A stretch of DNA of 64,000 nucleotides from an uncultured Bacilli bacterium (lineage in GTDB: Bacteria; Bacillota_I; Bacilli_A; RF39; UBA660): positions 33,804 to 97,803 of the forward strand of contig CAKOPN010000005.1 of NCBI GenBank assembly GCA_934100165.1. Direction: 5' to 3'. The position numbers were made by a program, and so were the translations under genes. The notes beneath the pieces were generated by a model. That model was not told the DNA's origin and made no database searches. It saw only the letters and a list, made by a program, of their open reading frames with translations. Shown in pieces: positions 15,291 through 44,547 of the stretch; within the stretch, counting starts at the first letter, position 1; every line of letters starts with the position of its first letter.

Positions 15291-15292
15291 TT

Positions 15293-16188: not shown

Positions 16189-16329
16189 ATGACACTTGTT
16201 ACTATTATTGCAATAGCAGCAGTATTAACTTTCGTTACTATGTTCTTACCAAAAATTTTAAATAGTGTTGGTAATACATGGGAAAATGGAACAGGACAAG
16301 AAATAAATGTTCCAAATCCAGGAAATTAA
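16189..16329 (+). CDS. Small pilin-like protein (46 aa; alternative start at 16162 gives 55 aa), absent from the supplied ORF track
   Basis: Translation MTLVTIIAIAAVLTFVTMFLPKILNSVGNTWENGTGQEINVPNPGN is a short hydrophobic helix plus a polar tail. An AGGAG RBS lies 8 nt upstream of the ATG at 16189. It sits where flp sits in tad loci. No canonical G/XXXXEY processing motif is present. Confidence 0.4.
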   Translation: MTLVTIIAIAAVLTFVTMFLPKILNSVGNTWENGTGQEINVPNPGN

Positions 16330-16352
16330 GATAGTAAAAGAGGTGATAGTTA

Positions 16353-16796: not shown

Positions 16797-16799
16797 CGT

Positions 16800-17747: not shown

Positions 17748-17759
17748 CATAAATAATCG

Positions 17760-17788
17760 TTGACAAATAAAGGTTGTTATAGTATTAT
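17760..17788 (+). promoter_or_regulatory. Consensus sigma-A-type promoter TTGACA-17 nt-TATTAT upstream of the VirB2-like gene
   Basis: Perfect -35 hexamer (17760-17765), a 17-nt spacer and a TATTAT -10 (17783-17788). A GGAGGAG RBS at 17804-17810 precedes the ATG at 17817. Confidence 0.5.
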
Positions 17789-17816
17789 TTAGTTATGAAA
17801 TTTGGAGGAGTTTTGT

Positions 17817-18146
17817 ATGGAAATATTTCAAACTTTAGCTGATGCTTGCGGAGGATTACGTCCGATCGTTGCAGTATTAAAAGGTGTATTTGATATTATT
17901 AAAATAGGTGTTCCAATTTTACTTATAATAATGGGAGCAATAGACTTAGGAAAAGCTGTTATGGCTAGTGATGATAAAGAAATCAAAGCAGCAACTAGTA
18001 AGTTAATTAAACGTGCTATTGCAGCAGCTGCAGTGTTCTTTGCTGTTACTATTGTAGATGTAGTAATGGGACTAGTAGCAAGAGGAGAAGAAACTGATGG
18101 TGAAACAAACTCATCAAGTTGGTCTGCTTGCTGGAAGAGTATGTAA
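17817..18146 (+). CDS. Small two-TM protein, VirB2/TrbC-like pilin candidate
   Basis: 109 aa from the ATG at 17817. The track start at 17802 is a TTG inside the RBS. There are two hydrophobic helices (IGVPILLIIMGAIDLG and AIAAAAVFFAVTIVDVVMGLV) separated by a charged loop, the topology of VirB2/TrbC-family conjugative pilins. Confidence 0.4.
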   Translation: MEIFQTLADACGGLRPIVAVLKGVFDIIKIGVPILLIIMGAIDLGKAVMASDDKEIKAATSKLIKRAIAAAAVFFAVTIVDVVMGLVARGEETDGETNSSSWSACWKSM

Positions 18147-18257
18147 TTTTAATTATATCTGTAAAAGGAAGGATTATTTCTTCTTTTTTTTTAATTTTTA
18201 TTTATGTTTTTTGTAAAATATGTTATATTAGATGTGTGTATTTTATGCGAGGTAAGT

Positions 18258-19466
18258 ATGGATAAAAAAGTGTATAAATATATTGGAATATTAGTCGGCT
18301 TAGTAGTTTTATTAGTAGTAGTTGTATGGATATCTAATCTTGTTAGCGGTGGAACAACCTATTCCTATGAAAGTATAGAGAAAAAAATGGTAAGTGCTAC
18401 TAAAAGTTATATGAAAGATCATTCAGCAATGCTTCCTACAGAAGTTGGAGAAAGTGTAACAATATCACCAACTGTGTTAGTTAACAATAATTACTTTAAA
18501 GGTTTTGACGCATATGTAAAAGATAGCGACGTTGTATGTAACGGAAGTGTTGATGTATATATGGCTGGTGACGGTTATTATGATTACACACCAACTCTTA
18601 ATTGCGGAAATAAACACAATACAACGAAGTTATATGAAAAAGTTTTAGAAGATAATAACTATGGTGTAGTAATGGGATATGGTCTTTATCAAAGAGTGAA
18701 TGGAACGTTTGTTACAAACGAAGATAATCTAGTAATTGATAACAATTATGAAAGCCTTGAATATGTATTTCGTGGAAAAGATGTTAATAACTATGTAAAA
18801 ATCGATGATAATTACTGGAGAATAGTTGCAATAAGTGATGCCGGTGATATGACACTTTTATTCTCTGGAACACTCCAAAGAGGTGTATCTTGGGATGATA
18901 AATATAATGAAAGTGTTGGTAAAAATCAAGGTATAAATGATTATGAAAAAAATGGAATAAAAAGTACAATAAGAGAAGAAGTAGAAAAATTTTATAATGG
19001 AGAAGCAACATTGCTAAATAAAGAAGAATATAGTCCTAAAACTAAATATTTAATTTCACCTGCTTCATTGTGTATTGGCAAAAGAAAAGCAACGGATAAA
19101 GATTCAAGTGGAAAAATAGAATGTAGTCAAAGACTTGATGGACAGTATGTAGGATTGCTTCCAGCATACTACTATATGAATGCAAGTGTTGATGAAAACT
19201 GTGATACAATTACTTCAAGAAGTTGTGGAAATGATAACTATTTATCAAGCTTTAATGATTACTGGTGGCTTTTAACTGCTAATCAAGAAGCAAGTAATGA
19301 AGCATACCAAGTATTTAAAACCTATGCTCGTTCAGAATTGTGTATAGCAAAAACAAATGTTAAACCAACTGTTTTACTAGGAAATAGAGTATTATGGGAA
19401 AGTGGAGATGGAAGCAGTAACAATCCATATACCATCAAGTTTTATGCTGATGACAGTTTAAATTAA
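18258..19466 (+). CDS. Membrane-anchored Cys-rich extracellular protein of unknown function
   Basis: About 402 aa from the ATG at 18258 (GAGG RBS). An N-terminal TM anchor (YIGILVGLVVLLVVVVWI) is followed by an extracellular domain with ~10 Cys. Located inside the T4SS-like array. Confidence 0.55.
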   Translation: MDKKVYKYIGILVGLVVLLVVVVWISNLVSGGTTYSYESIEKKMVSATKSYMKDHSAMLPTEVGESVTISPTVLVNNNYFKGFDAYVKDSDVVCNGSVDVYMAGDGYYDYTPTLNCGNKHNTTKLYEKVLEDNNYGVVMGYGLYQRVNGTFVTNEDNLVIDNNYESLEYVFRGKDVNNYVKIDDNYWRIVAISDAGDMTLLFSGTLQRGVSWDDKYNESVGKNQGINDYEKNGIKSTIREEVEKFYNGEATLLNKEEYSPKTKYLISPASLCIGKRKATDKDSSGKIECSQRLDGQYVGLLPAYYYMNASVDENCDTITSRSCGNDNYLSSFNDYWWLLTANQEASNEAYQVFKTYARSELCIAKTNVKPTVLLGNRVLWESGDGSSNNPYTIKFYADDSLN

Positions 19467-19500
19467 AGATGAGTAGTTTTAATAAAAAAGGAGTGATATT

Positions 19501-21381
19501 ATGGGATTACAAGCAGAAAGTTGGATCAATAATATACTAAGGACAATTTTAGCTGGCCTTGATTATGTTATTTATGGACTAATTAAAAACGTACTTTTTC
19601 TAACTTTTGACTTAGCTAATTTAACAACAAGCTCAAAGATATTAAATGGTATATATAGTCGTATATATGTACTTTTAGGAGTATTTATGGCTTTCAAACT
19701 TTCTTTTTCATTCTTTCAATACATTGTTGATCCAGAATCAATGACAGGAAAAAGTGAAAAAGGTGTTGGAAAACTTATTTCACGTACAATAGTTATGCTT
19801 GTAGCACTGGTTGGTCTTCCAACAATATTATTTGGTGGTGGTGATGGTGAAGGCTTAATTCAGAGAGCTCAAAATGCATTTTTACCAATGCTACCTAGAG
19901 TTATCTTTGGAATAAGCGAAGATAGCGGTGTATCTGCAAGTAATGGTAATAACACTGAAGACATTACTAATGCTGCAAATACGATGGCAGCTTATACGTT
20001 AGGTGCTTTTTTCGCACCGTCGCCGGATTTGGATAGTGTATGTGAAGGTCAATATGCCAATACACCATACATAACATCACTTGACCAATTTATTTCAAAT
20101 GTTAATGTGAGTTGTAGAAACACTACTGGTAAGGGTGATAGTGCTAAATACTACAAATATAGTTATATATGCTTAATATCTACGGTAGTAGGACTATTGT
20201 TAGTAATTATTTTGTTAGGAATTGCCTTAGACGTTGGAAAGAGAGTTTTCAAAATGATAATTTTACAAGCAATAGCACCAATTCCAATAATGTCGTTAAT
20301 AGATCCAAAGTCAAGCAAAGATGGTGCTTTTTCACACTGGTTAAAGTCTTTAATTTCAACTTTCTTAGAAATATTTATTAAACTGGGTTTGGTATACCTT
20401 GTGCTTATGTTTATACAGTACATTATAAGTGGAGGATTGTTTAGTAATTTTCCAAGTTTTAGTGGACCAAACGGAGTAATTAGAAGTTCATTCTTATTTG
20501 TAACCTTGATAATAGCATTGCTCTTATTTGCCAAAGAAGCTCCAAAATTTATCAAGGATGCTATGGGAATTAAAGATTCAGGTGCTGGCTTTGGACAAGG
20601 AATGAGCGCTGCTATGGGAGCCATCGGTGGATTTATTGGTGGACGTGGTCTTGCTGGTATGGCAACAGGAGCAGTCGCAGGAGCTACAGCAGATCCTAAA
20701 GTTGGTGGTTACGCAGCAGGTCGTGACATAGCAGGTCAAATGAGAACAGGTGATAAAAACTGGAAAGGTGGTCTTACTAATGGCTTCATGAGAGGTGCAA
20801 GAAATCACCAAGGTACAAGAGAAGCAAGAAAACTTGGTGTAACTTCAGCAAGTTTGAGTGCTGCTAAAGATGCAATGAAGAAGGATGAAGAACGTGTTGA
20901 ATCACTACAACAAGCATATGGTGAAGCAGTACAAAGCGGAGATGCAACTGCTATTGCCGAAGCAAGAACAAATTTAAATGCTGCTATCAAACAGTCAAAA
21001 GCCTCAAAGAAAAGATACGAAGGTATGGACAAAATTGCCGATACATTTGGTATAAAAACACCAAAACATGTTGAAATGAAACAAAATGGAAACCCAGTGT
21101 ACAGAGGAAGAAGATCAGCAGCTAACCTTGCTGGCAAAGCTGGTAGTTGGATAGAGAATAGCAAAGTTGGTGCACCTATTAGAACAATTGATTCAGCAGT
21201 ACAACAGCATAGAATTAATCAAGTAACAAGAGGTGCAGCATTTGGAGATGATTCAGCACTTGCAGAAAGAAGAGATGAACTAGATAGTAGAGGTACATTA
21301 CAATCAAAAACTGGTCGTCACTTTGCACCAAGAGGCTCAAATAACAATAATTCTGGCGGTTCTAGTGGAAGTAGTTCATAA
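19501..21381 (+). CDS. VirB6/TrbL-like polytopic membrane protein with a long Gly-rich hydrophilic C-terminal tail
   Basis: 626 aa. About 6 TM helices in the first ~360 aa, then a Gly/Ala-rich segment (GAGFGQGMSAAMGAIGGFIGGRGLAGMATGAVAGA) and a ~250-aa charged tail ending in SGGSSGSSS. This architecture and the synteny (before VirB3-like and VirB4) are typical of VirB6-like proteins of Gram-positive T4SS. Confidence 0.5.
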   Translation: MGLQAESWINNILRTILAGLDYVIYGLIKNVLFLTFDLANLTTSSKILNGIYSRIYVLLGVFMAFKLSFSFFQYIVDPESMTGKSEKGVGKLISRTIVMLVALVGLPTILFGGGDGEGLIQRAQNAFLPMLPRVIFGISEDSGVSASNGNNTEDITNAANTMAAYTLGAFFAPSPDLDSVCEGQYANTPYITSLDQFISNVNVSCRNTTGKGDSAKYYKYSYICLISTVVGLLLVIILLGIALDVGKRVFKMIILQAIAPIPIMSLIDPKSSKDGAFSHWLKSLISTFLEIFIKLGLVYLVLMFIQYIISGGLFSNFPSFSGPNGVIRSSFLFVTLIIALLLFAKEAPKFIKDAMGIKDSGAGFGQGMSAAMGAIGGFIGGRGLAGMATGAVAGATADPKVGGYAAGRDIAGQMRTGDKNWKGGLTNGFMRGARNHQGTREARKLGVTSASLSAAKDAMKKDEERVESLQQAYGEAVQSGDATAIAEARTNLNAAIKQSKASKKRYEGMDKIADTFGIKTPKHVEMKQNGNPVYRGRRSAANLAGKAGSWIENSKVGAPIRTIDSAVQQHRINQVTRGAAFGDDSALAERRDELDSRGTLQSKTGRHFAPRGSNNNNSGGSSGSSS

Positions 21382-21399
21382 AAGGGAGTGTGATATATA

Positions 21400-21726
21400 G
21401 TGAATAATTATTTAATACCCGCAAATGCCAATAGAGGAAGACTAATTTTAGGGTACTTCAGGCCAATTGATTTAATTATCTTTCTAGTAGGAATTACAGC
21501 AACACTAATTTTATTCTTAGTATTTCAGGATTATACCGACAGTACTTTGGTAGTTATAACTCTTATGCTTCCAGTACTTACAGCATTACTCTTAGTATTA
21601 CCAATACCATATCAACATAACGTATTGGTTCTTCTTACAGCTATATATAGTTTCTTTTGTGTAAATAGACAAAAATATGTTTGGAGAGGTTGGTGTATGA
21701 AATATGACGACGAGACAAAGAAGTAG
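21400..21726 (+). CDS. VirB3/PrgI-like small two-TM membrane protein
   Basis: 108 aa with two TM helices, immediately upstream of the VirB4 gene as in Gram-positive conjugation loci. GTG start with an AAGGGAG RBS. Confidence 0.4.
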   Translation: MNNYLIPANANRGRLILGYFRPIDLIIFLVGITATLILFLVFQDYTDSTLVVITLMLPVLTALLLVLPIPYQHNVLVLLTAIYSFFCVNRQKYVWRGWCMKYDDETKK

Positions 21727-22255
21727 ATTTACAGAAGACTGGGTACCAGTTCAAAATATTACAAATGGAATGATAATCCTTAACAATCAAGAAAAAGTAA
21801 CTGGAGTTAAAGTTGCTCCTAAAAATATATTTATATTGGATTATGAATCACAGCAATCAGTTTTGGTAAACTTGCAAAATATGTATAACCAAATAGATTT
21901 TGAGTTTTGGTTAGTAGTAGCGGATAGACCAGTTGACATATCTGTGTATATGTCACAATTACAACTCCTTTATAATCAAGAGTCTTCACCAGCAATTAGA
22001 AAACTTATTGCTGAAGACATAGATAAAGGAAGTTCATTTATGAATAACAACGTTGTTGATACAGAATATTTCCTTCTATTTAAAGAAAGAGATATGGATA
22101 GAATTCAAAGAAGAATAAGAATGCTTATAAATGCATTAGCAACAGCAGGACTTTCAGCAAAACAAACATCAAATGAGGATTTAAGAGTTATACTCGATAA
22201 CTTCTTAAATGGTGGAAAAACTACAGATTTTGGAACGGTGGTGGTTAATCAATGA
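21704..22255 (+). CDS. Hypothetical protein; possible separately encoded N-terminal portion or partner of VirB4
   Basis: 183 aa with no TM. It overlaps the VirB3-like gene by 23 nt and the VirB4 ORF by ATGA (22252-22255). Together with the 597-aa ORF it sums to ~780 aa, the usual VirB4 size. Confidence 0.4.
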   Translation: MTTRQRSRFTEDWVPVQNITNGMIILNNQEKVTGVKVAPKNIFILDYESQQSVLVNLQNMYNQIDFEFWLVVADRPVDISVYMSQLQLLYNQESSPAIRKLIAEDIDKGSSFMNNNVVDTEYFLLFKERDMDRIQRRIRMLINALATAGLSAKQTSNEDLRVILDNFLNGGKTTDFGTVVVNQ

Positions 22256-24045
22256 GTATGTTAAAGTTTAAATCACAAATTGCACCAAAAGGATTACAAT
22301 TTTATCCTAGTGAATTTTTTATAAGTGATAAATATGCTACTATATTAACAGTTGTATCATTTCCAAAATTTATTTCGCCAGGATACCTTTCAAGCATAAC
22401 AAATATGTCTGGTATTAAGATTGTTATCAAACATATTCCACTACCTTTTTCAGTAGTATCAAAAATGTTAAATAAGCAAATAGCAGACTTAAAAATTAAA
22501 TATCAAGAAGAACATGATAGAACAATGCAAGAAAAATATCGTATGGACTATGAATCACTTGAGTCTTTCGTAACAATGTTAGCAGGAAGTCAAGCTAGAA
22601 TATTCGATTTCCAAATGCATATTTTAATTACTGCAGATTCAAAAGAAAGTTTGGAACTTAAGAAAACAAATATTAAAAACTACCTAGATGCCATGGGAAT
22701 GAAAGGAGTGGCATTAAGATTTGAGCAAGAAAAAGCTTTAAAATCAATGATTCCAGTATTTCCAAAGCAAGACATAGAAGAGAGAATAGGAACACCAATC
22801 CCTTCAGTAACAATTGCTGCAATGTACCCATTTATCTTTGACAGCGTAAAAGATCCTGGATATGCAACGCTTTTAGGAGTTGATTTCTCAGGTGGTGTTA
22901 TCTTGTTCAACCAATTCTTGTATAAAATAAGAAAAGAAAATAATAGAAACAATGCAAACCTTATCTTACTAGGTACATCAGGTAGTGGTAAATCAACAGC
23001 AGCTAAACTTTTACTTAGAGGCCATATAAGAAATGGTTGCCAAATAGTAGCAATAGACCCAGAAAACGAGCTTGAAGAGATGACAAAAACATTTGGAGGA
23101 GACACAATCGACCTTGGTAAAGGTGGAGAATTCGGTATGATTAACCCACTTCAAATAGTAATTGATGCTGATGAAGATGAAATGAGACAGGGACTAGGAT
23201 ATACAGTCTTAACTCGTACACTACAGTTCTTAAAAGCCTTTATGAAATATTATGATCCATCAATTGAAGAAGATGTACTTACATTGTTTAGTGAAGTTGT
23301 TCAAGATACATACAAGCGTTTTGGAATTGACTTTGATAAAGACTTCTATAGCTATGGACCACAAGATTATCCAACATTCTCAGATGTTTATGAAACTATA
23401 AAAGCAATACTTTTATCAATGACGGATAAAACACATGAACGTGATATAATGGAAAGACTTGAGTTAAAAATAAGACCACTTACCAAAGATTTAAAATACT
23501 ATTTTGATGGTCATACAACTATAACTCATGATAGCGATTTTATTACATTTAACATTAAAGAGCTTATGAATGCTGATGAAAATATTAAAAATGCACTTTT
23601 CTTCAACATTTTGAAATATGCTTGGGGATTATGTTTGGACAAAGATGTTGATACAATTCTGATGGTAGATGAAGCACACGTTCTATTAAGTGATAGCAAT
23701 ACTCTAGGTGCAGACTTCTTAGCTCAAGTTCAAAGACGTGCTAGAAAATATAACACAGGAACGATTATAATTACACAACAACCAAGTGACTTTGCAGCGC
23801 CAAGTGTTCTAGTACAAGGTAAAGCAATATTCGATAATGCTTCTTACTACTTAGTAATGGGATTAAAGAAACAAGCAACAGAGGACTTAAGTCTGTTGAT
23901 AGATTTAAATGATAATGAAAAAGAAAGTATTAAACAGTATTCACAAGGTGAAGCACTGTTCGTCTGTGGAAATAGACGTATGAGAATAAATGTTATTGTA
24001 ACACCAGAAGAGCTATCATCATTCGGTAGTGGCGGAGGACTATAA
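22252..24045 (+). CDS. VirB4/TraE/TrsE-family T4SS ATPase
   Basis: 597 aa. Walker A LILLGTSGSGKST, Walker B ILMVDEAHVL, motif RRARKYNTGTIIITQQPSDF, and the N-terminal YPSEFFISDKYATILTVVSFPKF region typical of Gram-positive VirB4 proteins. Confidence 0.85.
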   Translation: MSMLKFKSQIAPKGLQFYPSEFFISDKYATILTVVSFPKFISPGYLSSITNMSGIKIVIKHIPLPFSVVSKMLNKQIADLKIKYQEEHDRTMQEKYRMDYESLESFVTMLAGSQARIFDFQMHILITADSKESLELKKTNIKNYLDAMGMKGVALRFEQEKALKSMIPVFPKQDIEERIGTPIPSVTIAAMYPFIFDSVKDPGYATLLGVDFSGGVILFNQFLYKIRKENNRNNANLILLGTSGSGKSTAAKLLLRGHIRNGCQIVAIDPENELEEMTKTFGGDTIDLGKGGEFGMINPLQIVIDADEDEMRQGLGYTVLTRTLQFLKAFMKYYDPSIEEDVLTLFSEVVQDTYKRFGIDFDKDFYSYGPQDYPTFSDVYETIKAILLSMTDKTHERDIMERLELKIRPLTKDLKYYFDGHTTITHDSDFITFNIKELMNADENIKNALFFNILKYAWGLCLDKDVDTILMVDEAHVLLSDSNTLGADFLAQVQRRARKYNTGTIIITQQPSDFAAPSVLVQGKAIFDNASYYLVMGLKKQATEDLSLLIDLNDNEKESIKQYSQGEALFVCGNRRMRINVIVTPEELSSFGSGGGL

Positions 24046-30238: not shown

Positions 30239-30315
30239 GGGCGATTAGCTCAGTTGGTTAGAGCACCTGCCTTACAAGCAGGGGGTCATAGGTTCGAGTC
30301 CTATATCGCCCACCA
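30239..30315 (+). tRNA. tRNA-Val (anticodon TAC)
   Basis: Cloverleaf GGGCGAT/ATCGCCC acceptor stem, D-arm GCTCAGTTGGTTAGAGC, anticodon loop CTTACAA, T-arm GGTTCGAGTCC, encoded CCA. Confidence 0.9.
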
Positions 30316-30325
30316 TATTTGTTGT

Positions 30326-30401
30326 GCCGAAATAGCTCAATTGGTAGAGCAACTGATTTGTAATCAGTAGGTTCCGGGTTCAAGTCCTGGTTTCGGCACC
30401 A
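30326..30401 (+). tRNA. tRNA-Thr (anticodon TGT)
   Basis: Acceptor GCCGAAA/TTTCGGC, anticodon stem ACTGA/TCAGT with loop TTTGTAA, T-arm GGTTCAAGTCC, encoded CCA. Confidence 0.9.
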
Positions 30402-30407
30402 TTTTTT

Positions 30408-30491
30408 GGAGAGGTAGCGAAGTGGCTAAACGCGGCAGACTGTAAATCTGTTCCTTCGGGTTCGATGGTTCGAATCCATCTCTCTCCACCA
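30408..30491 (+). tRNA. tRNA-Tyr (anticodon GTA), with long variable arm
   Basis: GGAGAGG acceptor, anticodon loop CTGTAAA, variable arm TCCTTCGGG, T-arm GGTTCGAATCC, encoded CCA. Confidence 0.85.
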
Positions 30492-30496
30492 CTTAT

Positions 30497-30571
30497 TGCC
30501 TCGTAGCCAAGTGGTAAGGCACGAGACTTTGACTCTCGCATGCGCTAGTTCGAATCTAGCCGAGGCAGCCA
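30497..30571 (+). tRNA. tRNA-Gln (anticodon TTG)
   Basis: TGCCTCG/CGAGGCA acceptor (U1-A72 as in Bacillus tRNA-Gln), anticodon loop CTTTGAC, T-arm AGTTCGAATCT, encoded CCA. Confidence 0.85.
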
Positions 30572-30578
30572 ATTTTGT

Positions 30579-30654
30579 GTTCCGTTAGCTCAGTTGGTAG
30601 AGCATTTGACTTTTAATCAAAGGGTCTGGAGTTCGAATCTCCAACGGGACACCA
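30579..30654 (+). tRNA. tRNA-Lys (anticodon TTT)
   Basis: GTTCCGT/ACGGGAC acceptor, anticodon loop CTTTTAA, T-arm GAGTTCGAATCTC, encoded CCA. Confidence 0.9.
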
Positions 30655-30700: not shown

Positions 30701-30710
30701 ATACAATAAA

Positions 30711-30742
30711 ATGCAGTATGAAAAATTACTGCATTTTTTTTA
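30711..30742 (+). terminator. Second tandem Rho-independent terminator
   Basis: Hairpin ATGCAGTA-tgaaaaat-TACTGCAT followed by TTTTTTT. Confidence 0.6.
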
Positions 30743-30789: not shown

Positions 30790-30832
30790 TGTCGAAAATA
30801 AAGGTATAAAAAAAATGATAACCTTTGTCGAA
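30790..30832 (+). promoter_or_regulatory. Two Spo0A-box-like heptamers TGTCGAA (30790-30796 and 30826-30832) upstream of spoIIAA
   Basis: Exact matches to the Spo0A 0A-box consensus TGTCGAA, 36 bp apart, 50-95 nt upstream of the spoIIAA GTG start. In B. subtilis the spoIIA operon is Spo0A-activated. Confidence 0.4.
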
Positions 30833-30884: not shown

Positions 30885-31223
30885 GTGTTACAAATTGAAA
30901 CAATATATAAAAAAGGAATTCTTTTTGTAAGATGTTATGGAGTAATAAATAAAGAAACAAAAAAAGAACTTGAAAAAACACTTGAAAGCGCCATAAATGA
31001 AGTTGGTATAAAATATTTGCTTTTAAACGTTGAAAATATTTACTATATAAATACAGAAATAGAATCCATAATAAAAAAATGGAGTACTATTTTAAGTAAA
31101 AAGGATGGAAAGTTCTTTATGTGTGGAAAAGAACAATTAAAAGAAACATATGATGTTGATAAAACAGAAAAAGTACTACAGATGACAGATGAATTTAGTG
31201 TATTTAAAATGATAAATATATAG
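30885..31223 (+). CDS. spoIIAA: STAS-domain anti-sigma-factor antagonist, SpoIIAA-like (divergent)
   Basis: 112 aa. It aligns along its length with SpoIIAA (IETIYKKGILFVRCYGVI..., YLLLNVENIYYIN..., FFMCGKEQLKE) and sits immediately upstream of sigF. The canonical phospho-acceptor DSSG loop reads NTEIES here. GTG start with a GGAGG RBS. Confidence 0.65.
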   Translation: MLQIETIYKKGILFVRCYGVINKETKKELEKTLESAINEVGIKYLLLNVENIYYINTEIESIIKKWSTILSKKDGKFFMCGKEQLKETYDVDKTEKVLQMTDEFSVFKMINI

Positions 31224-31224
31224 G

Positions 31225-31917
31225 GTGATAAAATTGGAAAGAGAAGAAATCGCATTATTATGTAAAAAGCTTGTATATTCTATAGCAAGAAAATATAGTA
31301 AAAGTGAATCTGATTTGGAAGACTTATATCAAGTAGGAAATGTTGGACTTTCAAAGGCAATGGCTAATTACAAAGAAGGAAAAAATGCCAAATTTTCAAG
31401 TTATGCTCATTTTTATATTGAAGGAGAAATTTTAAAATACATAAGAGAAAACAAGCCTATAAAAGTTAATAATAATTTAACAAGATTAAATAGAGACATA
31501 ACAAGAGCTAAAGAGTATTTACTGCAAACATATATGAGGGAACCAACGATAGAGCAAATTGCACTTTTCCTTGATAAAACACCACAAGAAATAGAAGACG
31601 CTATTACAAGTTCATTATCAGTAAAAAGTCTTGACTATGAACTTAATGCTGAAGAAGAAGGAAAAGATGTTAACTTATATGACTATTCTTCTTATATTGA
31701 AAAAGGTTATGATGAAGATATTTTAACAGTAAGAGAAGAAATAAGAAAACTAGATCCAAAAGAAAGACGAATTATAATTTCTAGATATTATGAAGATAAA
31801 AGTCAAAACGAAACATCTAAAGAGTTAGGTATGAGTCAAGTTCAACTTTCTAGAACAGAGACAAAAATACTAGCAAAAATAAGAAATAATATTGGACCAT
31901 ACTGTGTAAAGGTATAA
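31225..31917 (+). CDS. sigF: Sporulation sigma factor, SigF-like (sigma-70 family, SigF/SigG/SigB clade)
   Basis: 230 aa. Region 2 (DLYQVGNVGLSKAMANY...FSSYAHFYIEGEILKYIRE) and region 4 (LGMSQVQLSRTETKILAKIR) are closely similar to B. subtilis SigF. The context spoIIAA-sigF-spoVAC/D/E matches the Bacillus and Clostridium spoIIA-spoVA neighbourhood. Confidence 0.75.
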   Translation: MIKLEREEIALLCKKLVYSIARKYSKSESDLEDLYQVGNVGLSKAMANYKEGKNAKFSSYAHFYIEGEILKYIRENKPIKVNNNLTRLNRDITRAKEYLLQTYMREPTIEQIALFLDKTPQEIEDAITSSLSVKSLDYELNAEEEGKDVNLYDYSSYIEKGYDEDILTVREEIRKLDPKERRIIISRYYEDKSQNETSKELGMSQVQLSRTETKILAKIRNNIGPYCVKV

Positions 31918-31942
31918 CTGCTATAAAAAGCAGTTTTTTTGT
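31916..31942 (+). terminator. Rho-independent terminator between sigF and spoVAC
   Basis: Hairpin AACTGCT-ataaaa-AGCAGTT followed by TTTTTTT. Confidence 0.55.
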
Positions 31943-31985
31943 ATAAAAATACCATTTTTGTTAATCATATTTATAGGTGATTATA

Positions 31986-32429
31986 ATGGAGAAAAAGGAT
32001 TATAAAAAAATAGTAGATAAAAATAAAGCAAAAGAGAAAAGATTACAAAATGCCGTAATTGCATTCATAACAGGAGGAATAACTGGTGCAATAGCAGAAC
32101 TTTTAGTAAATCTTTATTCATATTATTTAAATATTTCAACTCAGGATGCATCAGTATTTATGATAGTAACACTAATATTTTTAGCAGCATTATTTACTTC
32201 TCTTGGTTTCTTTGATAAATGGGTCAACTTTGCAAGATGTGGTTTAATCATTCCCATAACAGGGTTTGCTCATTCAATGATGAGTGCTGGATTAGAATAT
32301 AAAAAAGAAGGACCAATATATGGAATTGGTAGCAATGTTTTTAAACTAGCTGGATCGGTAATATTCTATGGTGTAGTTAGTGCATGGTTGTTTGGAATGA
32401 TTAGATATTTCTTGTTTGGAGGTGCGTAA
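31986..32429 (+). CDS. spoVAC: Stage V sporulation protein AC
   Basis: About 147 aa from the ATG at 31986 (GGTGA RBS). Four TM helices and high similarity to SpoVAC (ITGGITGAIAELL..., GLIIPITGFAHSMMSAGLEYKKEG). Confidence 0.9.
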   Translation: MEKKDYKKIVDKNKAKEKRLQNAVIAFITGGITGAIAELLVNLYSYYLNISTQDASVFMIVTLIFLAALFTSLGFFDKWVNFARCGLIIPITGFAHSMMSAGLEYKKEGPIYGIGSNVFKLAGSVIFYGVVSAWLFGMIRYFLFGGA

Positions 32430-32430
32430 G

Positions 32431-33426
32431 ATGACATTTAAATTTAATGAAGCTTATTTAAATAGTACTGCAACAGTAACTGGACCTTATGAAAACGAAG
32501 GACCATTAAAAGGTAAATTCGATAAAAGTTATGAAGACTTGTACAATGGTGAAAAAAGCTGGGAAAAAGCAGAAATAAAACTCTTTGAAGAGTCAATTGA
32601 TATTCTTCTTAATAAAAGTAAAAAGAAAAAAGATGATATAGATATAGTGATTGGTGGAGATTTGCAAAATCAAATAGCAGCATCCTGTTATGGTGCATTA
32701 AAATTTAAAATACCATTCTTAGGAATTTATTCAGCATGCACAACAAGTACTGAAGGACTTATTTTAGGTTCTGTTTTAATAGATAGTAAAAGAGTTAAAA
32801 ATGCAGTAGTCACTGTTTCATCACATAATATGGCAAGTGAAAAACAGTTTAGAAATCCAACTGAATATGGAGCGCCAAAACCTAAGACTGCAACATTTAC
32901 TACAACAGGAGGAGCAAGTGCACTTATATCAAGCACAAAATCTAAAGTAAAGTTAGAGTCTGGTACAATTGGAAAAATGTGTGATATGAATCAAAGTGAT
33001 CCAAATAATATGGGAGCTGCAATGGCTGTTGCGGCAGCAGATACAATATATACACATTTAAAAGATATGAAAAGAAGTCCTGAATATTATGATTTAATAA
33101 TAACCGGAGACTTGGGAGTTTATGGGAGTAGAATACTTTTAGAATATATGAAAAGTGAATATGGCTTAGATATATCTGAAAATCATAAAGATAGTGGTAC
33201 GATGATATATGATGTTAATAATACAGAAGAAGTAATGGCAGGAGGAAGTGGACCAGCTTGTAGTCCTTTAGTAAATTATTCATATACAGTGCCGCTCCTT
33301 GAAAAGGGAAGCTTAAATAAAGTTTTGATTGTAGCAACAGGAGCATTATTTTCGCCAACAGCTATATATCAAAAGGAACCAATTATATCAATTAGTCATG
33401 CAGTAAGTTTGGAGAGTGTGAAATGA
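32431..33426 (+). CDS. spoVAD: Stage V sporulation protein AD
   Basis: About 331 aa from the ATG at 32431 (GGAGGTG RBS). Thiolase-like fold with SpoVAD motifs (GIYSACTTSTEGLILGS, ITGDLGVYG). Confidence 0.9.
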   Translation: MTFKFNEAYLNSTATVTGPYENEGPLKGKFDKSYEDLYNGEKSWEKAEIKLFEESIDILLNKSKKKKDDIDIVIGGDLQNQIAASCYGALKFKIPFLGIYSACTTSTEGLILGSVLIDSKRVKNAVVTVSSHNMASEKQFRNPTEYGAPKPKTATFTTTGGASALISSTKSKVKLESGTIGKMCDMNQSDPNNMGAAMAVAAADTIYTHLKDMKRSPEYYDLIITGDLGVYGSRILLEYMKSEYGLDISENHKDSGTMIYDVNNTEEVMAGGSGPACSPLVNYSYTVPLLEKGSLNKVLIVATGALFSPTAIYQKEPIISISHAVSLESVK

Positions 33427-33773
33427 CATATATATATTCGTTTTTATTTGTAGGGTTTGTAAGTATGATAGGCCAAATAATATTAGATAATACTCGTCTT
33501 ACAGCAGGTCACATAACAAGTTTGTTTGTCTGTATTGGTGCGATGCTTGATACATTCAGCATATATGATAAGATAATTAAATGTGTAGGATCAGGTGCTT
33601 TAGTACCGATAACTTCCTTCGGTCATTCTTTAATTCATGGAGCACTTGCAAAAGCTGCAGATTTTGGTGTAATAGGGTTAGTAATGGGAATGTTTGATTT
33701 AACGGCCTCAGGTATAACATCGGCAATAATATTTACTTTTGTCTTCTCTTTAATATTTAATCCAAAAGACTAA
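33423..33773 (+). CDS. spoVAE: Stage V sporulation protein AE
   Basis: 116 aa. Membrane protein paralogous to SpoVAC (VPITSFGHSLIHGALAKAADFGVIGLVMG). ATGA overlap with spoVAD. Confidence 0.85.
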   Translation: MTYIYSFLFVGFVSMIGQIILDNTRLTAGHITSLFVCIGAMLDTFSIYDKIIKCVGSGALVPITSFGHSLIHGALAKAADFGVIGLVMGMFDLTASGITSAIIFTFVFSLIFNPKD

Positions 33774-33816: not shown

Positions 33817-34812
33817 GTGAGTAGTATGAAAGAGATAAATAGTCAAAAAGAAATGTTTGTAAATACTTTGGTGTTAGCAATAATAATACTTGTTATTGCT
33901 GTTTTCTTTTGGCCAAATGATGTGGCTAAATCCCAAAGTAACAAATTAGATAAATCTAAAACACAAATCAAAGTTTTAGTAAAAAGAATAAATATAAGAA
34001 AAGAACCAACAATAAATTCTGAGGACATTGGAGATGTTTACAAAGATGAAATATATACAGTATTGGACAATGTTGATGCTGAAGAATATTACTGGTACAA
34101 AATAGAAACCTCTAAAAATGTAGTTGGATACATTGCATCTGATCCAAAAAGCGAATATGTTGAGGTTATAAGTGGTTACATAGATAGAACTGCTCCAGAA
34201 ATTATTTTTAGCAAAGATTTCTTGTTATTTGAAAATGGAAAAGAAAACTTTGAATCTGTAACGTGCGTTGATGAACATTCTAGTTGTACTTTAACACATG
34301 AATATTTATCACAAGATTATGTTAGATTTAAAGCTAAAGATGAAAAAAATAACGAGAGTGAAAAAGACATAAAATATTATAAAGTCTATAAGTTTAATGA
34401 AAGTGCTAAAGAAACTAGTCAAAATATAAATGCTAGTTATAATTTTACAAATGAAGATAACGAAATAGAAATAAATGCAAAATATGTTCTTAACAAGGAC
34501 ATTTCCAGTGAAAATAAAAGTATAAATTATACTCCAATAATTACTTTATATGATGATTCTTTTAATGAAGTTAAAATATATACGACATATAGCGGAATAG
34601 AGGAAGATACAATAAATAATTATGATATGTCTTTGAAAGAAGAATATATAGATAAAGATTTAACTAAAGATAATGCTATTGGAATAAAATATATTTTTAA
34701 AAATAATCAATCAAATATTAAATATGTAAGAGTAGGGTTTATCGGAGTAGAAAATTATAATAATGATGCTAACTTACTAGCATATTACTATTCTAGATAT
34801 TACGCTATTTAA
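33817..34812 (+). CDS. Membrane-anchored protein with bacterial SH3-like domain, otherwise unknown
   Basis: 331 aa. An N-terminal TM (LVLAIIILVIAVFFW) is followed by an SH3b-like segment (KVLVKRINIRKEPTINSEDIGDVYKDEIYTVLD...YWYKIETSKNVVGYIASD). The rest is Asn/Tyr-rich with no recognisable domain. Confidence 0.45.
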   Translation: MSSMKEINSQKEMFVNTLVLAIIILVIAVFFWPNDVAKSQSNKLDKSKTQIKVLVKRINIRKEPTINSEDIGDVYKDEIYTVLDNVDAEEYYWYKIETSKNVVGYIASDPKSEYVEVISGYIDRTAPEIIFSKDFLLFENGKENFESVTCVDEHSSCTLTHEYLSQDYVRFKAKDEKNNESEKDIKYYKVYKFNESAKETSQNINASYNFTNEDNEIEINAKYVLNKDISSENKSINYTPIITLYDDSFNEVKIYTTYSGIEEDTINNYDMSLKEEYIDKDLTKDNAIGIKYIFKNNQSNIKYVRVGFIGVENYNNDANLLAYYYSRYYAI

Positions 34813-34865: not shown

Positions 34866-35183
34866 ATGAATATAAGTATAGAATATGTAATTATAGGAAT
34901 AATCCTTTTAGTGGTGTTACTAGCAGTTTTAAAAGCTGGGAAGAAAGATGTTCACCTAGAACTAAATAAATTGGTAGACTATCTTGGTGGAAAAGATAAT
35001 ATTGTGTCAACAGAGACGAATTTATCTAGATTTAAAGTAACTCTTAAAGATGTTTCGAAAGCAAATAAAGATGCTATAACAAAGTTAGGAGCTAAAGGAA
35101 TTGTAGAAATTGGTAATGAACTAAAAATTATTTTGGGACCAAATTCAAAGCAGTTGAAAAAGTATATAGATAACCTAAAATAA
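34866..35183 (+). CDS. Membrane-anchored PTS EIIB(Glc)-like domain protein lacking the phosphorylatable Cys
   Basis: 105 aa. An N-terminal TM is followed by LVDYLGGKDNIVSTETNLSRFKVTLKD...GAKGIVEIG, which aligns with the EIIB_glc fold. The Cys of the CATRLR motif appears replaced (TNLSRF). Confidence 0.45.
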   Translation: MNISIEYVIIGIILLVVLLAVLKAGKKDVHLELNKLVDYLGGKDNIVSTETNLSRFKVTLKDVSKANKDAITKLGAKGIVEIGNELKIILGPNSKQLKKYIDNLK

Positions 35184-35210: not shown

Positions 35211-35227
35211 TTCGACAAAATTCGACA
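35211..35227 (-). promoter_or_regulatory. Two tandem Spo0A-box-like heptamers (TTCGACA on the + strand, i.e. TGTCGAA on the - strand) at 35211-35217 and 35221-35227, upstream of the orphan histidine kinase gene
   Basis: Exact 10-bp direct repeat TTCGACAAAA x2, 40-55 nt upstream of the kinase ATG at 35268. Each unit contains the reverse complement of the 0A-box consensus. Confidence 0.4.
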
Positions 35228-35267
35228 AAATGAATTCATATAATTGTTACTGAAAGAAGGTAATTAT

Positions 35268-36416
35268 ATGAATTTTTTTATTGAGTTAATTAAGTATTTA
35301 ATACTAACATTATTCCCACTTTTTCTGTACAAGTCATTTGAAGGATATGATAAGGATAAAAATGCATTGTTGAATATCCTTATCGCGTCATCTTTTTTAG
35401 TTGCAGTAATTTTTCTTAATGATATATATTTTATAATTTTTCTTTATGTACCTTATTATATTTGTTATATCAAAAAGAAAAAACTACTTGGAACACTGGT
35501 TTTAATTTCATCTATTGTGTTTTTATACAATTCTTATGGAATTTCAATATATCTTTTAATATTACAATTTATATCATTCTTAGTGTTGCTTTTTATAAAT
35601 AAAAAAGAATATCTATTTCTAACATTTTCAACATATTTTTATTCACTTGAAGTATTTATTTATGTATCAAATAATGTAAATTTTATTTACATGGTATTAC
35701 TAGCACTAATAACGTGTTTAATATATATTTTAATTGAAGATTTTATTCTAGTAAGTAAGTATCAACAACTAGAAAAAACTTACAATGCTTATTTATTTAA
35801 ATTTATTCATGAAATAAAAAATCATTTATCAATTTGTAAGGGATATTTAGAGATGTATAAGAGTAAAAATAGTAAGAATAAAAAAGACTACTTAGAGCAT
35901 GTAACAAAGTCAATAAATGAGTCTTTGGACATTATGGAAGATTATCTTTTGTATGGAAGATATAATGTTCAGTTTGATTACTTAGATGCAAATCTTCTTT
36001 TAAATGATGTATACAATGATTTTAAAAGTTTATATGATGGAAAAAATGTTGATATAGATTTTAATTACAATGAAGATGAAATTTTTATAAAAGGTGATTA
36101 CAATAAATTAAAACAGGTTTTGGTTAATATAATAAAAAATGGTATTGAAGCTAAAAAGGATAAAAAAAGGGCCCAAATAAGGCTTAGTATAGATAAAACA
36201 AATTCTAATGTAATTATAGAAATTAAAGATAATGGTATTGGAATTAAGAATTTAGATAAGTTAGGTAATGAATTTTATACTACTAAAAACTATGGTACTG
36301 GATTAGGGGTAAGTTTTTCTAAACACATAATAGATCTTCATAATGGTGATATAAAATATATATCTAATAAAGATGGTACAACTGTCAAAATATCATTACC
36401 AATTCAAAATATCTAA
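35268..36416 (+). CDS. Orphan sensor histidine kinase with polytopic N-terminal membrane domain
   Basis: About 382 aa from the ATG at 35268 (GAAGG RBS). About 6 TM helices, H-box FIHEIKNHLSICKGYLEMY, and HATPase_c N, G1 and G2 boxes (IIKNGIEA, IKDNGIGI, GTGLGVS). No response regulator gene is adjacent. Confidence 0.75.
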   Translation: MNFFIELIKYLILTLFPLFLYKSFEGYDKDKNALLNILIASSFLVAVIFLNDIYFIIFLYVPYYICYIKKKKLLGTLVLISSIVFLYNSYGISIYLLILQFISFLVLLFINKKEYLFLTFSTYFYSLEVFIYVSNNVNFIYMVLLALITCLIYILIEDFILVSKYQQLEKTYNAYLFKFIHEIKNHLSICKGYLEMYKSKNSKNKKDYLEHVTKSINESLDIMEDYLLYGRYNVQFDYLDANLLLNDVYNDFKSLYDGKNVDIDFNYNEDEIFIKGDYNKLKQVLVNIIKNGIEAKKDKKRAQIRLSIDKTNSNVIIEIKDNGIGIKNLDKLGNEFYTTKNYGTGLGVSFSKHIIDLHNGDIKYISNKDGTTVKISLPIQNI

Positions 36417-37019: not shown

Positions 37020-37712
37020 ATGATTTATTCACAAGAAGTGGAAAATATGTGCAAAGTTACTAAAGGTGCAGATCATGGACCAGCACCAATTCCAGAAGAA
37101 GGAAAATGGGTAAAAGCAAAAGAGATTAAAGATATTTCAGGACTTACTCATGGTATTGGTTGGTGTGCACCACAACAAGGGGCATGTAAATTAACACTTA
37201 ATATTAAAAATGGAATTATAGAGGAAGCTTTAGTAGAAACTGTTGGATGTTCAGGTATGACTCACAGTGCAGCAATGGCTAGTGAAATACTTGTTGGAAA
37301 AACTATTTTAGAAGCTCTTAATACAGATTTAGTGTGTGATGCAATAAATACTGCTATGAGAGAATTATTCTTACAAATAGTATATGGAAGAAGTCAATCT
37401 GCATTCTCAGAAAATGGTCTTCCAATTGGAGCAGGATTAGAAGATTTAGGAAAAGGACATAGAAGTCAAGTTGGAACATGTTACAGTACTAAAGTCAAAG
37501 GGCCTAGATATCTAGAACTATCTGAAGGATATATAACAGATATAGCACTTGATAAAAATGATGAAATCATTGGTTACAAATTTGTTAATCTTGGAAAAAT
37601 GATGGAAAATATCAAAAAAGGTATTGAACCAAAAGAAGCAATTGAAAAAGCAAGTGGAAAATATGGAAGGTTCGATGAAGCTGTAAAAGTTATCGATCCA
37701 AGAGAGGAGTAG
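37020..37712 (+). CDS. NifU/IscU-like domain protein
   Basis: 230 aa. The N-terminal segment GIGWCAPQQGACKLTLNIKNGIIEEALVETVGCSGMTHSAAMASEILVGKTILEA has the IscU/NifU N-domain pattern, including the conserved Cys positions. AGGAGG RBS. Confidence 0.55.
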   Translation: MIYSQEVENMCKVTKGADHGPAPIPEEGKWVKAKEIKDISGLTHGIGWCAPQQGACKLTLNIKNGIIEEALVETVGCSGMTHSAAMASEILVGKTILEALNTDLVCDAINTAMRELFLQIVYGRSQSAFSENGLPIGAGLEDLGKGHRSQVGTCYSTKVKGPRYLELSEGYITDIALDKNDEIIGYKFVNLGKMMENIKKGIEPKEAIEKASGKYGRFDEAVKVIDPREE

Positions 37713-37716
37713 TAAA

Positions 37717-38715
37717 ATGGCACTTTTTGAAAGTTATGAAAGAAGAATTAAACAAATAGAAAAGAAGTTAAAAGAATATGGAATCAAATCACTTGATGAA
37801 GCTAAAGCTATTTGTGATGACAAAAATATAGATGTATTTAAAATCGTAAGAGGTATTCAACCAATTTGTTTCGATAACGCATGTTGGGCATATACAGTAG
37901 GAGCAGCTCTTGCAATTAAATCAAATGTAAAAACAGCAAAAGAGGCAGCAGAAAAAATAGGTGAAGGTCTACAATCATTCTGCATACCTGGTAGTGTTGC
38001 AGATGATAGAAAAGTTGGACTAGGACATGGGAACTTAGGAGCAATGTTATTATCAGAAGATACAGAATGTTTTGCCTTCTTAGCAGGACATGAATCTTTT
38101 GCAGCAGCAGAAGGTGCTATTGGAATTGCTAATTCAGCTAACAAAGTAAGAAAGAAACCATTAAGAGTAATATTAAATGGATTAGGAAAAGATGCTGCAC
38201 AGATTATCTCTAGAATAAATGGATTTACTTATGTAAAAACAGAGTTTGACTACTACACAGGAAAACTTAAAATAGTAAGTGAAACACCATATTCAAAGGG
38301 TGAAAGAAGCAAAGTTAAATGTTATGGAGCAGACGATGTTAGAGAAGGTGTTGCTATAATGCATCATGAAAAGGTTGATGTATCAATTACTGGTAACTCT
38401 ACTAACCCTACAAGATTTCAACATCCAGTTGCAGGTACATACAAGAAAGAATGTAACGAAATGGGTAAAAAGTACTTCTCAGTTGCATCAGGTGGTGGAA
38501 CAGGAAGAACACTTCACCCAGACAATATGGCAGCAGGACCAGCTTCTTATGGTATGACTGATACAATGGGAAGAATGCATAGTGATGCACAGTTTGCAGG
38601 AAGTTCAAGCGTACCAGCCCATGTTGAAATGATGGGACTAATTGGTATGGGAAATAACCCAATGGTTGGAGCTACTGTAGCAGTTGCTGTCGCTATTGAA
38701 GAAGCAATGAAATAA
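37717..38715 (+). CDS. GGGtGRT-family protein
   Basis: 332 aa. It contains the family-defining motif SVASGGGTGRTLHP and a Gly/Ala-rich C-terminal region. It is adjacent to the NifU-like gene with a 4-nt gap. Confidence 0.6.
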   Translation: MALFESYERRIKQIEKKLKEYGIKSLDEAKAICDDKNIDVFKIVRGIQPICFDNACWAYTVGAALAIKSNVKTAKEAAEKIGEGLQSFCIPGSVADDRKVGLGHGNLGAMLLSEDTECFAFLAGHESFAAAEGAIGIANSANKVRKKPLRVILNGLGKDAAQIISRINGFTYVKTEFDYYTGKLKIVSETPYSKGERSKVKCYGADDVREGVAIMHHEKVDVSITGNSTNPTRFQHPVAGTYKKECNEMGKKYFSVASGGGTGRTLHPDNMAAGPASYGMTDTMGRMHSDAQFAGSSSVPAHVEMMGLIGMGNNPMVGATVAVAVAIEEAMK

Positions 38716-43854: not shown

Positions 43855-44547
43855 ATGTTTTTTAAATTGTTAGAAAAACTCAAGAAATTGTTCGTATTCA
43901 CTGCAAGTTATTCTAATAATGTTTTTCTAGATCCATTAACTAAAGAAGAAGAGGAAGAGTGCATAAAAAAAGCTAATATGGGTGATAAGAATGCTAGAAA
44001 TAAACTTATAGAACATAACTTAAGGCTTGTCGCTCACATAGTTAAAAAGTTTGATTATAAAAATGTTGATCAAGATGACCTGATAAGTATAGGCACGATT
44101 GGTCTTATAAAAGGTGTTGATTCCTTTTCTAAAAGTCATGGGACAAAAATTACAACTTACTGTGCAAGATGTATAGAAAATGAAATACTAATGTACTTTA
44201 GGAGTAACAATAAAACGAGTAAAGATATATCTATAAATGAATCAATTGGTTATGATAAAGAAGGAAATGAAATAACAATTCTTGATATTTTAAAAATGCC
44301 AAGTCCTGATTTTGTGGAAACAATAAATGAAAAAGATAATGTAAAACTACTCAAAGAATATGTAAAAGTATTAACGCCAAGAGAAAAAAATATACTTTTT
44401 AAACGTTATGGAATTGGGGACAATGATGAAATGACCCAGAAAGAAATAGCAAAGGATTTAAAAATATCAAGAAGTTATGTATCAAGAATTGAGAAGAGAG
44501 CTCTTATGAAAATATTAAGGGAATTTATGAAGAACAATAAGACGTAA
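43855..44547 (+). CDS. sigK: Pro-sigma-K (sporulation mother-cell sigma factor), uninterrupted
   Basis: 230 aa. Near-identity to B. subtilis SigK over HNLRLVAHIVKKF, DLISIGTIGLIKG, TYCARCIENEILM and ISRSYVSRIEKRALMK. There is an N-terminal ~25-aa pro-sequence. The gene is intact, with no intervening element. Confidence 0.8.
   Translation: MFFKLLEKLKKLFVFTASYSNNVFLDPLTKEEEEECIKKANMGDKNARNKLIEHNLRLVAHIVKKFDYKNVDQDDLISIGTIGLIKGVDSFSKSHGTKITTYCARCIENEILMYFRSNNKTSKDISINESIGYDKEGNEITILDILKMPSPDFVETINEKDNVKLLKEYVKVLTPREKNILFKRYGIGDNDEMTQKEIAKDLKISRSYVSRIEKRALMKILREFMKNNKT

Follow-up and report, generated by a model that had tools for sequence, protein, structure and literature searches.

A spoIIA operon that lacks spoIIAB and keeps a diverged SpoIIAA-like gene in an uncultured RF39 bacterium and its relatives

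Introduction

The textbook explanation for why sigma-F is active only in the forespore is the switch formed by SpoIIAA, SpoIIAB and SpoIIE. How, then, might sigma-F be controlled in a bacterium whose spoIIA operon has no spoIIAB? This question is raised by a stretch of 64,000 nucleotides (nt), hereafter the window, from an uncultured Bacilli bacterium of the order RF39 (assembly GCA_934100165.1, contig CAKOPN010000005.1, positions 33,804 to 97,803). In the window, a gene encoding a STAS-domain protein stands directly before a sigF-like gene, and the two are followed by spoVA genes. We argue below that textbook partner-switching probably does not control sigma-F in this bacterium, nor in a large lineage related to it.

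Related losses have been tabulated before. Field, Bowerman and Hugenholtz (2024) found spoIIAB and spoIIE to be reduced or absent in RF39, and spoIIE to be reduced or absent in ML615J-28 and in the RFN20 family CAG-449 (PMC10868615).

Results and discussion

The operon has no room for spoIIAB

The STAS gene lies on the plus strand at positions 30885 to 31223 and encodes 112 amino acids; it has a GTG start codon, with GGAGG 6 nt upstream, and a TAG stop codon. The sigF-like gene follows on the same strand at 31225 to 31917, encodes a short protein of 230 amino acids, and starts with a GTG at 31225 or, alternatively, with a TTG at 31234. The gap between the genes is thus 1 to 10 nt, depending on the sigma start codon. 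Because spoIIAB requires roughly 440 nt, it cannot fit there. Since the genes abut or, in some relatives, overlap, their translation is probably coupled. The two-gene unit ends in an intrinsic-terminator-like hairpin at 31916 to 31935 (plus strand), beyond which the plus strand carries spoVAC (31977 to 32429; TIGR02838, 156.7 bits), spoVAD (32416 to 33426; PF07451, 404.7 bits, and PRK08304, 414.7 bits, above cutoff) and spoVAEB (33423 to 33773; TIGR02839, 126.3 bits). A first-pass annotation of the window had described a STAS gene followed by sigF without space for spoIIAB, in a conserved spoVA neighbourhood; its coordinates and description are correct, and the three spoVA matches agree with it.

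The two-gene arrangement is shared by relatives. We searched 1.84 billion representatives exhaustively with a profile and retrieved 529 relatives of the STAS protein at E<=1e-3; with the limit set to E<=1e-10 the family has 147 members, which are clusters at 50% identity. The best 150 all outscore canonical Geobacillus and Bacillus SpoIIAA on this profile (at least 57 versus about 40 bits). Nine members, taken from across the score range, were examined in their genomic context (P0020, P0021, P0143, P0168, P0169, P0174, P0209, P0220 and P0267). In all nine the STAS gene abuts or overlaps a sigma gene of 216 to 230 codons, spoVA genes follow in 8 of the 9, and spoIIAB is next to the pair in none.

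Five metagenome-assembled genomes (MAGs) from rabbit, deer and other gut samples in a genome collection have the order STAS-sigF-spoVAC-D-EB-SH3, with sigF 65 to 77% identical, and two 'Erysipelotrichaceae' rumen MAGs have sigF-spoVA without a STAS gene. A word-indexed search yielded 488 sigma-F relatives at E<=1e-20; among the best 120 of these, identity is 56% or higher and almost every protein has 211 to 236 amino acids. Among 30 loci from relatives (L001 to L030), the STAS gene directly precedes sigF, with no spoIIAB between them, in L001-L004, L007, L013-L016 and L019-L030, and the two genes overlap in L013, L026, L027 and L029. This arrangement persists down to 27% identity for the STAS protein and 35% for sigma-F. 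Canonical spoIIAA is located immediately upstream of spoIIAB; here, the gene 1 nt downstream is that of the sigma factor, and the sigma gene likewise comes next in all STAS-bearing relatives examined.

A dacF-like Peptidase_S11 gene is found upstream in L011, L019, L022 and L027, matching the dacF-spoIIA-spoVA order of Bacillus. Because this synteny of dacF-like, STAS, sigF and spoVA genes is retained, the locus is an orthologue of the spoIIA operon. In a 'Mollicutes bacterium' MAG (GCA_012837765.1; L029 and L030), an overlapping STAS-sigma pair is followed by yceG instead of spoVA, so that the two-gene module outlasts its sporulation neighbourhood. A relative from the same sigma-F cluster is represented by contigs of 1.0 to 1.3 Mb, which suggests a small genome.

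The STAS protein resembles SpoIIAA and the sigma factor resembles sigma-F

The window STAS protein passes the Pfam STAS model narrowly (PF01740, cutoff 22.6 bits, score 25.9 bits, E 8.9e-6), and scores 23.1 bits with the SpoIIAA equivalog TIGR02886, far under the cutoff of 114.75. We obtained a clearer signal with a profile of 20 homologues, for which SpoIIAA is the top match among solved structures (1TH8_B, E 9.5e-10, 41.7 bits; 1AUZ, E 5e-9), compared with only 20 bits (E 0.005) for the RsbV-like TM1442. An AlphaFold2 (AF2) model of the protein, with a mean predicted local confidence (pLDDT) of 84.5 and a predicted template-modelling score (pTM) of 0.79, has the four-strand beta-sheet and alpha-helices of the SpoIIAA fold. 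The top Foldseek matches of this model are SpoIIAA, including 1THN_B from the SpoIIAA-SpoIIAB complex (E 1e-8, template-modelling score (TM) 0.85). The STAS fold that the first-pass annotation had assigned to the 112-residue protein is thus predicted, and of the two candidate families, SpoIIAA and RsbV, the former fits better. Given the best profile match and the superposition of the model, we take the protein to be a true but diverged SpoIIAA descendant.

The sigma factor has regions r2, r3 and r4. Its top NCBIfam matches are SigB/F/G (174.6 bits) and spore_sigF (167.6 bits), compared with 128.3 and 114.7 bits for SigG models and 108.4 bits for SigB. The sigma-F score is about half the cutoff of the equivalog (TIGR02885, 321.45 bits). 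Among solved structures the best match is Geobacillus sigma-F (1L0O_C, 113.5 bits), and the alignment begins at residue 30 of 1L0O_C, i.e., the window protein lacks about 25 N-terminal residues. The spoVAC-D-EB genes directly downstream are those expected of a sigF gene in a dacF-spoIIA-spoVA neighbourhood. SigK is encoded in the same window (43855 to 44547) and scores 285.9 bits, where the equivalog cutoff is 298.65; with PRK05803 it reaches 300.9 bits and passes the cutoff of 252. Because SigK so nearly reaches its equivalog cutoff, the scores suggest that the changed constraints are specific to sigma-F rather than genome-wide. The sigK gene is intact and uninterrupted, and it is much better conserved than that of sigma-F.

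The phospho-acceptor residue is no longer constrained

In HMMER alignments to PDB sequences, residues F-M-D57-S58-S59-G60 of SpoIIAA pair with Y-I-N56-T57-E58-I59 of the window protein, where N56 to I59 are encoded at 31050 to 31061. The close-family profile reads Y-I-N-S-D-I against F-M-D-S-S-G in SpoIIAA. The ATP-trapped complex 1TID carries F-M-D-A-S-G; this S58A change identifies the first of the two Ser residues as the acceptor, and its counterpart in the window protein is Thr57. The phosphorylatable D-S-[ST]-G loop of SpoIIAA is therefore replaced by N-T-E-I, with Asn for Asp, Ile for Gly and Thr at the acceptor position. The first-pass annotation had claimed an altered phosphorylation loop, and the alignment bears this out. 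We also considered Glu58 as a possible phosphomimetic at the acceptor position, based on an alignment by eye, and discarded this idea because the PDB alignment with 1TID places Thr57 at the acceptor position.

The acceptor column varies even among close relatives. In the 20 closest homologues it holds Ser in 11, Cys in 4, Val in 2, Thr and Asn in one each, and a gap in one. In 148 representatives of the wider family, only 22 (15%) have Ser or Thr; the column consists of 25 Lys, 20 Glu, 19 Ser, 15 Asn, 14 Leu, 11 Ile and others. Other SpoIIAA positions are kept in these representatives, namely G20 (99%), N49 (98%), C81 (89%), D57 (81%) and G60 (76%). The 148 representatives were aligned to a B. 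subtilis SpoIIAA sequence whose N-terminal 86 residues agree with the 1AUZ alignment. Family members that retain DSSG or DSNG are likewise without an adjacent spoIIAB. Constraint on the acceptor residue has thus been lost across the STAS family; such free variation would not be expected of a residue whose phosphorylation is essential. The suggestion of the first-pass annotation that the Thr might serve a kinase encoded in trans is consequently unlikely as a conserved mechanism.

Search for a relocated SpoIIAB or SpoIIE

We scanned nearly all open reading frames (ORFs) of at least 100 codons in the window with Pfam and NCBIfam models, setting aside those embedded antisense in longer genes. Among these ORFs there is no HATPase_c_2 match, the sole GHKL proteins being two classical histidine kinases, and there is no Pfam match to PP2C or SpoIIE. 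In addition, we built a hidden Markov model (HMM) from the B. subtilis and Geobacillus SpoIIAB sequences, of which the B. subtilis sequence was checked against 1TIL_A (231.8 bits). With this model, we searched all ORFs of at least 50 codons in the window and the 30 loci, 401 kb in total (64 kb from this genome and 337 kb from relatives), which amounts to a small fraction of each genome. No SpoIIAB-like ORF was found in the 401 kb, where only the two histidine kinases gave scores, of 15 to 17 bits.

A putative Spo0A-dependent promoter

Two perfect Spo0A boxes (TGTCGAA) precede the STAS gene on the plus strand. The distal box (30790 to 30796) is at -95 relative to the STAS start codon. The proximal box (30826 to 30832; -59) is part of TTTGTCGAA and is followed by invariant GTATA and CTAT-ATT elements, a putative promoter core. 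TTTGTCGAA is invariant in all 9 aligned promoters, including those of loci without a STAS gene. The position of the distal box (-94 to -97) and the spacing of the two boxes are common to L001, L002, L003, L007 and L015. The number of boxes was rejected as a signal; there are five perfect boxes in the 64 kb, compared with about 6 expected from base composition by a rough estimate. For this reason, the evidence consists of the positional conservation across loci, from which we infer that Spo0A may bind these boxes. A sigma-70 scan gave no match above background.

The 5' boundary of the control region is marked by a terminator-like hairpin at 30708 to 30737 (11-bp stem and T-run; strand not assigned), which closes a cluster of five tRNA genes (30239 to 30654). 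An AT-rich spacer of 150 nt separates this hairpin from the STAS ORF.

Perfect Spo0A boxes are also found elsewhere in the window. Two tandem ATTCGACAAA repeats at 35211 to 35227 are inverted boxes (minus strand, at 35211 and 35221), and they are situated just upstream of a TATAAT and a gene for a multi-pass membrane histidine kinase (35244 to 36416). The kinase has 390 amino acids, HisKA and HATPase_c domains, and weak KinD and SpoOB-type matches. It may be a Spo0A-regulated orphan sporulation kinase.

Selection on the STAS gene and its secondary loss

The STAS gene is under purifying selection. For the least saturated pair of loci (L002 and L003; synonymous divergence dS 0.47), the ratio of nonsynonymous to synonymous divergence (dN/dS) is 0.16 for the STAS gene and 0.054 for sigF, i.e., the STAS gene evolves about three times faster. 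For the STAS gene in other pairs from the subfamily, dN/dS ranges from 0.07 to 0.36. The STAS ORF is intact, at about 105 to 116 codons, in the family members examined, even at 27 to 40% identity. In the close subfamily, the helix-alpha2 face is conserved, with I59 and W66 nearly invariant.

Five loci have no STAS gene (L005, L006, L011, L017 and L018). In a neighbour-joining tree of sigma-F, they form one group nested inside the STAS-bearing lineages. Because of this nesting, we tentatively propose that spoIIAB was lost early, that the STAS gene was long retained, and that it was then lost once in a sub-clade; this order of events depends on a tree of a single protein. Three of the five (L005, L011 and L017) retain the same promoter directly upstream of sigF, with the proximal box and the GTATA...CTAT-ATT core immediately before the gene. 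In L006 and L018, no TGTCGAA box occurs within 160 nt of the sigF start. These two loci have a gene for a small protein, which is directly 5' of sigF in L006 (691 to 918) and overlaps sigF in L018 (5838 to 6008). The L018 protein matches the Pfam family Spore_Cse60, and the L006 protein resembles this family by eye.

Possible modes of sigma-F control

With moderate confidence, we favor the explanation that the locus is a reduced spoIIA operon that has given up phospho-partner-switching, that synthesis of the STAS protein and sigma-F depends on Spo0A, and that the STAS protein is a non-covalent, non-essential modulator. An ancestor of a large lineage would have deleted spoIIAB from between spoIIAA and sigF, leaving behind a promoter with Spo0A boxes, a STAS protein that descends from SpoIIAA, and a short sigma-F. 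The STAS protein would no longer be a phospho-switch. Because the acceptor residue is free to vary, there would be no kinase cycle of the SpoIIAB type and no need for dephosphorylation by SpoIIE, and both SpoIIAB and SpoIIE would be absent genome-wide. The activity of sigma-F would be set mainly through Spo0A~P-dependent synthesis of the operon, and the STAS protein would act stoichiometrically, non-covalently and dispensably on sigma-F itself or on another partner. The first-pass annotation had proposed a re-wired control of sigma-F. This stands insofar as spoIIAB is gone from the operon and the loop is altered, and is weakened in the role that it offered for the Thr as acceptor of a kinase encoded in trans.

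It is important to consider several points that weigh against our explanation. Purifying selection on the STAS gene implies some partner. The window protein does have Thr at the acceptor position, some family members retain a full DSSG (P0220 and P0267), and since D57 and G60 are mostly kept, the loop geometry for docking to SpoIIAB may persist. Because the part of this genome that we searched amounts to 64 kb, spoIIAB may have moved elsewhere, or a different anti-sigma factor may be encoded there. No Spo0A was found in these 64 kb, and the boxes are putative binding sites, recognised by their motif. Finally, the published losses of spoIIAB and spoIIE in RF39 are only suggestive as support for this particular locus (PMC10868615).

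Some of these points lead to an alternative that we regard as unlikely, namely that partner-switching is intact but split. In that case spoIIAB and spoIIE would be encoded elsewhere, and the STAS protein would still be a kinase substrate and antagonist via Thr57. The window protein has a hydroxyl residue as acceptor equivalent, as do 12 of the 20 close homologues; however, 6 of the 20 have Cys or Val, and in 85% of the 148 representatives the residue is Lys, Glu, Asn, Leu, Ile or another. Likewise, about 80% of the wider family retain D57 and G60, and DSSG survives in a few proteins, but the members with DSSG or DSNG are just as devoid of an adjacent spoIIAB. A split switch would also account for the purifying selection on the STAS gene, and it agrees with the fact that Field et al. 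list spoIIAB as missing only in RF39, not in ML615J-28 or RFN20 (PMC10868615). Against it are the lack of any SpoIIAB-like ORF in the 401 kb and the existence of a whole sub-clade that has no STAS gene yet retains sigF and its promoter.

Another alternative is that the STAS protein has taken on a new role and works directly on sigma-F, e.g., as a minimal anti-sigma factor, holder or chaperone, so that the STAS and sigma proteins constitute a two-component module. The strict adjacency and frequent overlap of the two genes across very divergent lineages, including the 'Mollicutes bacterium' MAG without adjacent spoVA, would be explained by such a module. So would the continued purifying selection without a conserved phosphorylation site, and the conserved helix-alpha2 face (I59 and W66) points to a protein partner. 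However, sigma-F shows no obvious change in the sub-clade that lost the STAS gene. Moreover, single-domain STAS regulators are known to bind anti-sigma kinases or other enzymes and are not known to bind sigma factors. We consider direct action on sigma-F to be quite doubtful. The bolder claim that the lineage has no SpoIIAB-type anti-sigma factor and that the SpoIIAA descendant is a phosphorylation-independent, direct partner of sigma-F, in a minimal two-protein switch, is doubtful too; if true, such a switch would be an undescribed mode of STAS action and of sigma-F control.

It is very unlikely that the STAS gene is a functionless remnant in the course of being lost, as part of a decay of the whole sporulation pathway in a host-adapted lineage that does not sporulate. 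One sub-clade does without the STAS gene, which evolves about three times faster than sigF, yet the STAS ORF remains intact at 27 to 40% identity, with dN/dS values of 0.07 to 0.36 in the subfamily. Similarly, its product scores far under the SpoIIAA equivalog cutoff (23 versus 115 bits), but the residues of the structural core are 89 to 99% conserved. Stepwise loss of sporulation genes is documented in related orders (Field et al. 2024; PMC10868615), whereas sigF, sigK and the spoVAC, spoVAD and spoVAEB genes of the window are all intact.

The idea that faulty assembly or gene calling explains the missing spoIIAB has in its favor only the prior that metagenome assemblies can be chimeric. It is already refuted, since more than 25 independent contigs, obtained from many samples with many assemblers, share the same junction at 27 to 99% STAS identity. 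The arrangement recurs in the nine family members considered above and in 7 genome loci, and it is present on long-read contigs of more than 1 Mb (one of 1,015,965 bp), so that the absence noted by the first-pass annotation survives and misassembly is excluded.

Comparison with known systems

The reduced operon that we propose has much in common with the spoIIA operon of Bacillus subtilis and Geobacillus (PDB 1TH8, 1TID and 1L0O). A dacF-like gene is upstream in relatives and spoVA is downstream, the STAS fold is of the SpoIIAA type (TM 0.85 to 1THN_B), sigma-F is the best sigma match, and the putative Spo0A-box promoter fits the known dependence of spoIIA on Spo0A. The differences are that no spoIIAB lies between the two genes, that DSSG has become NTEI with an acceptor position unconstrained across the family, that sigma-F is about 25 N-terminal residues shorter and scores half the equivalog cutoff, and that a SpoIIE-like PP2C protein was not found in the window. 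Turicibacter carries the canonical spoIIA triplet.

Modules of the RsbV-RsbW-SigB type (PDB 6M36) also place a single-domain STAS protein beside a group-3 sigma factor of the SigB/F/G family. However, the STAS profile favors SpoIIAA over the RsbV-like TM1442 (41.7 versus 20 bits), and neither an RsbW-like kinase nor a phosphatase of the RsbU/P type was found nearby.

Mycobacterium tuberculosis SigF is controlled by UsfX together with RsfA and RsfB (PDB 8IH8), where RsfA is regulated by redox state and not via the cognate anti-sigma kinase. The mechanism of this system provides a precedent for STAS antagonists that are independent of the kinase activity of the cognate anti-sigma factor. In contrast to the locus described here, where no anti-sigma factor was seen, it has a dedicated one, UsfX.

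The orders surveyed by Field et al. (RF39, RFN20 and ML615J-28) are, like the organism studied here, low-GC gut Bacilli with reduced genomes and a partial set of sporulation genes (PMC10868615). That survey is a KEGG-based table of presence and absence, so the bare loss of spoIIAB is already on record for one related order or more. The survey says nothing about the SpoIIAA-like gene that is retained, its missing phosphorylation site, how the operon is built, the Spo0A boxes or the secondary STAS loss. In the literature more generally, we found no description of this retained, de-phosphorylatable SpoIIAA homologue, of its two-gene operon with Spo0A boxes or of the later STAS loss.

Other features of the window

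The operon is part of a long run of genes on the plus strand, in a region with a G+C content of about 30%. Directly 3' of spoVAEB is a gene for an SH3_3 protein (33817 to 34812, plus strand) of about 330 amino acids with an N-terminal membrane anchor. It occupies the same place in most of the closer relatives (L001, L003, L005-L007, L011 and L017-L021) and may belong to the spoVA unit as a component specific to this lineage. The next gene (34866 to 35183) stands alone and encodes 105 amino acids, comprising a hydrophobic segment at the N terminus and a PTS EIIB domain; neighbouring genes for EIIC or EIIA were not seen. At 37020 to 38715 a member of the GGGtGRT family (660.6 bits) is encoded, with a gene for a weakly NifU-like protein before it. 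The sigK gene is followed by a polysaccharide deacetylase gene with Ig-like domains (44624 to 46108; weak PdaA and PdaB matches) and a cadherin-like protein gene (46121 to 47587).

A cluster at 11986 to 24045 encodes RcpC/CpaB-like, T2SSE ATPase, T4SS-pilin-like, TrbL-like and TraG/VirB4-like (AAA_10) proteins, along with several ORFs without a Pfam match, and is a Tad-pilus-like or type IV secretion locus. Upstream of it, a 786-codon ORF (9487 to 11847) has no Pfam match at all. The region from 54108 to 63772 looks like part of a conjugative element, with a topoisomerase (54108 to 56129), a SpoIID-domain protein of 1016 amino acids (57216 to 60266) and a coupling protein of the VirD4/CD1115 family (61172 to 63772). 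We rejected the SpoIID-domain protein as evidence of sporulation, given its location between the topoisomerase and coupling-protein genes; it is probably a transfer-associated cell-wall hydrolase and not the sporulation protein SpoIID.

Conclusions

The arrangement described here runs counter to the textbook view of a universal component of sporulation control. This matters for annotation, as predictors of sporulation also take spoIIAB to be universal. In a machine-learning study, for example, spoIIAB was present in 63 of 63 MAGs predicted to be spore formers, and RF39, RFN20 and ML615J-28 were scored as non-sporulating (PMC12536801).

A broad natural lineage keeps sigF, sigK and spoVA, yet has dropped the kinase/anti-sigma factor from the operon and freed the phosphorylation site of the antagonist. 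This lineage is either a natural experiment in simplifying or replacing the compartment-specific control of sigma-F, or a well-resolved intermediate on a path along which Mollicutes-like Bacilli, as they adapt to hosts, lose sporulation step by step.

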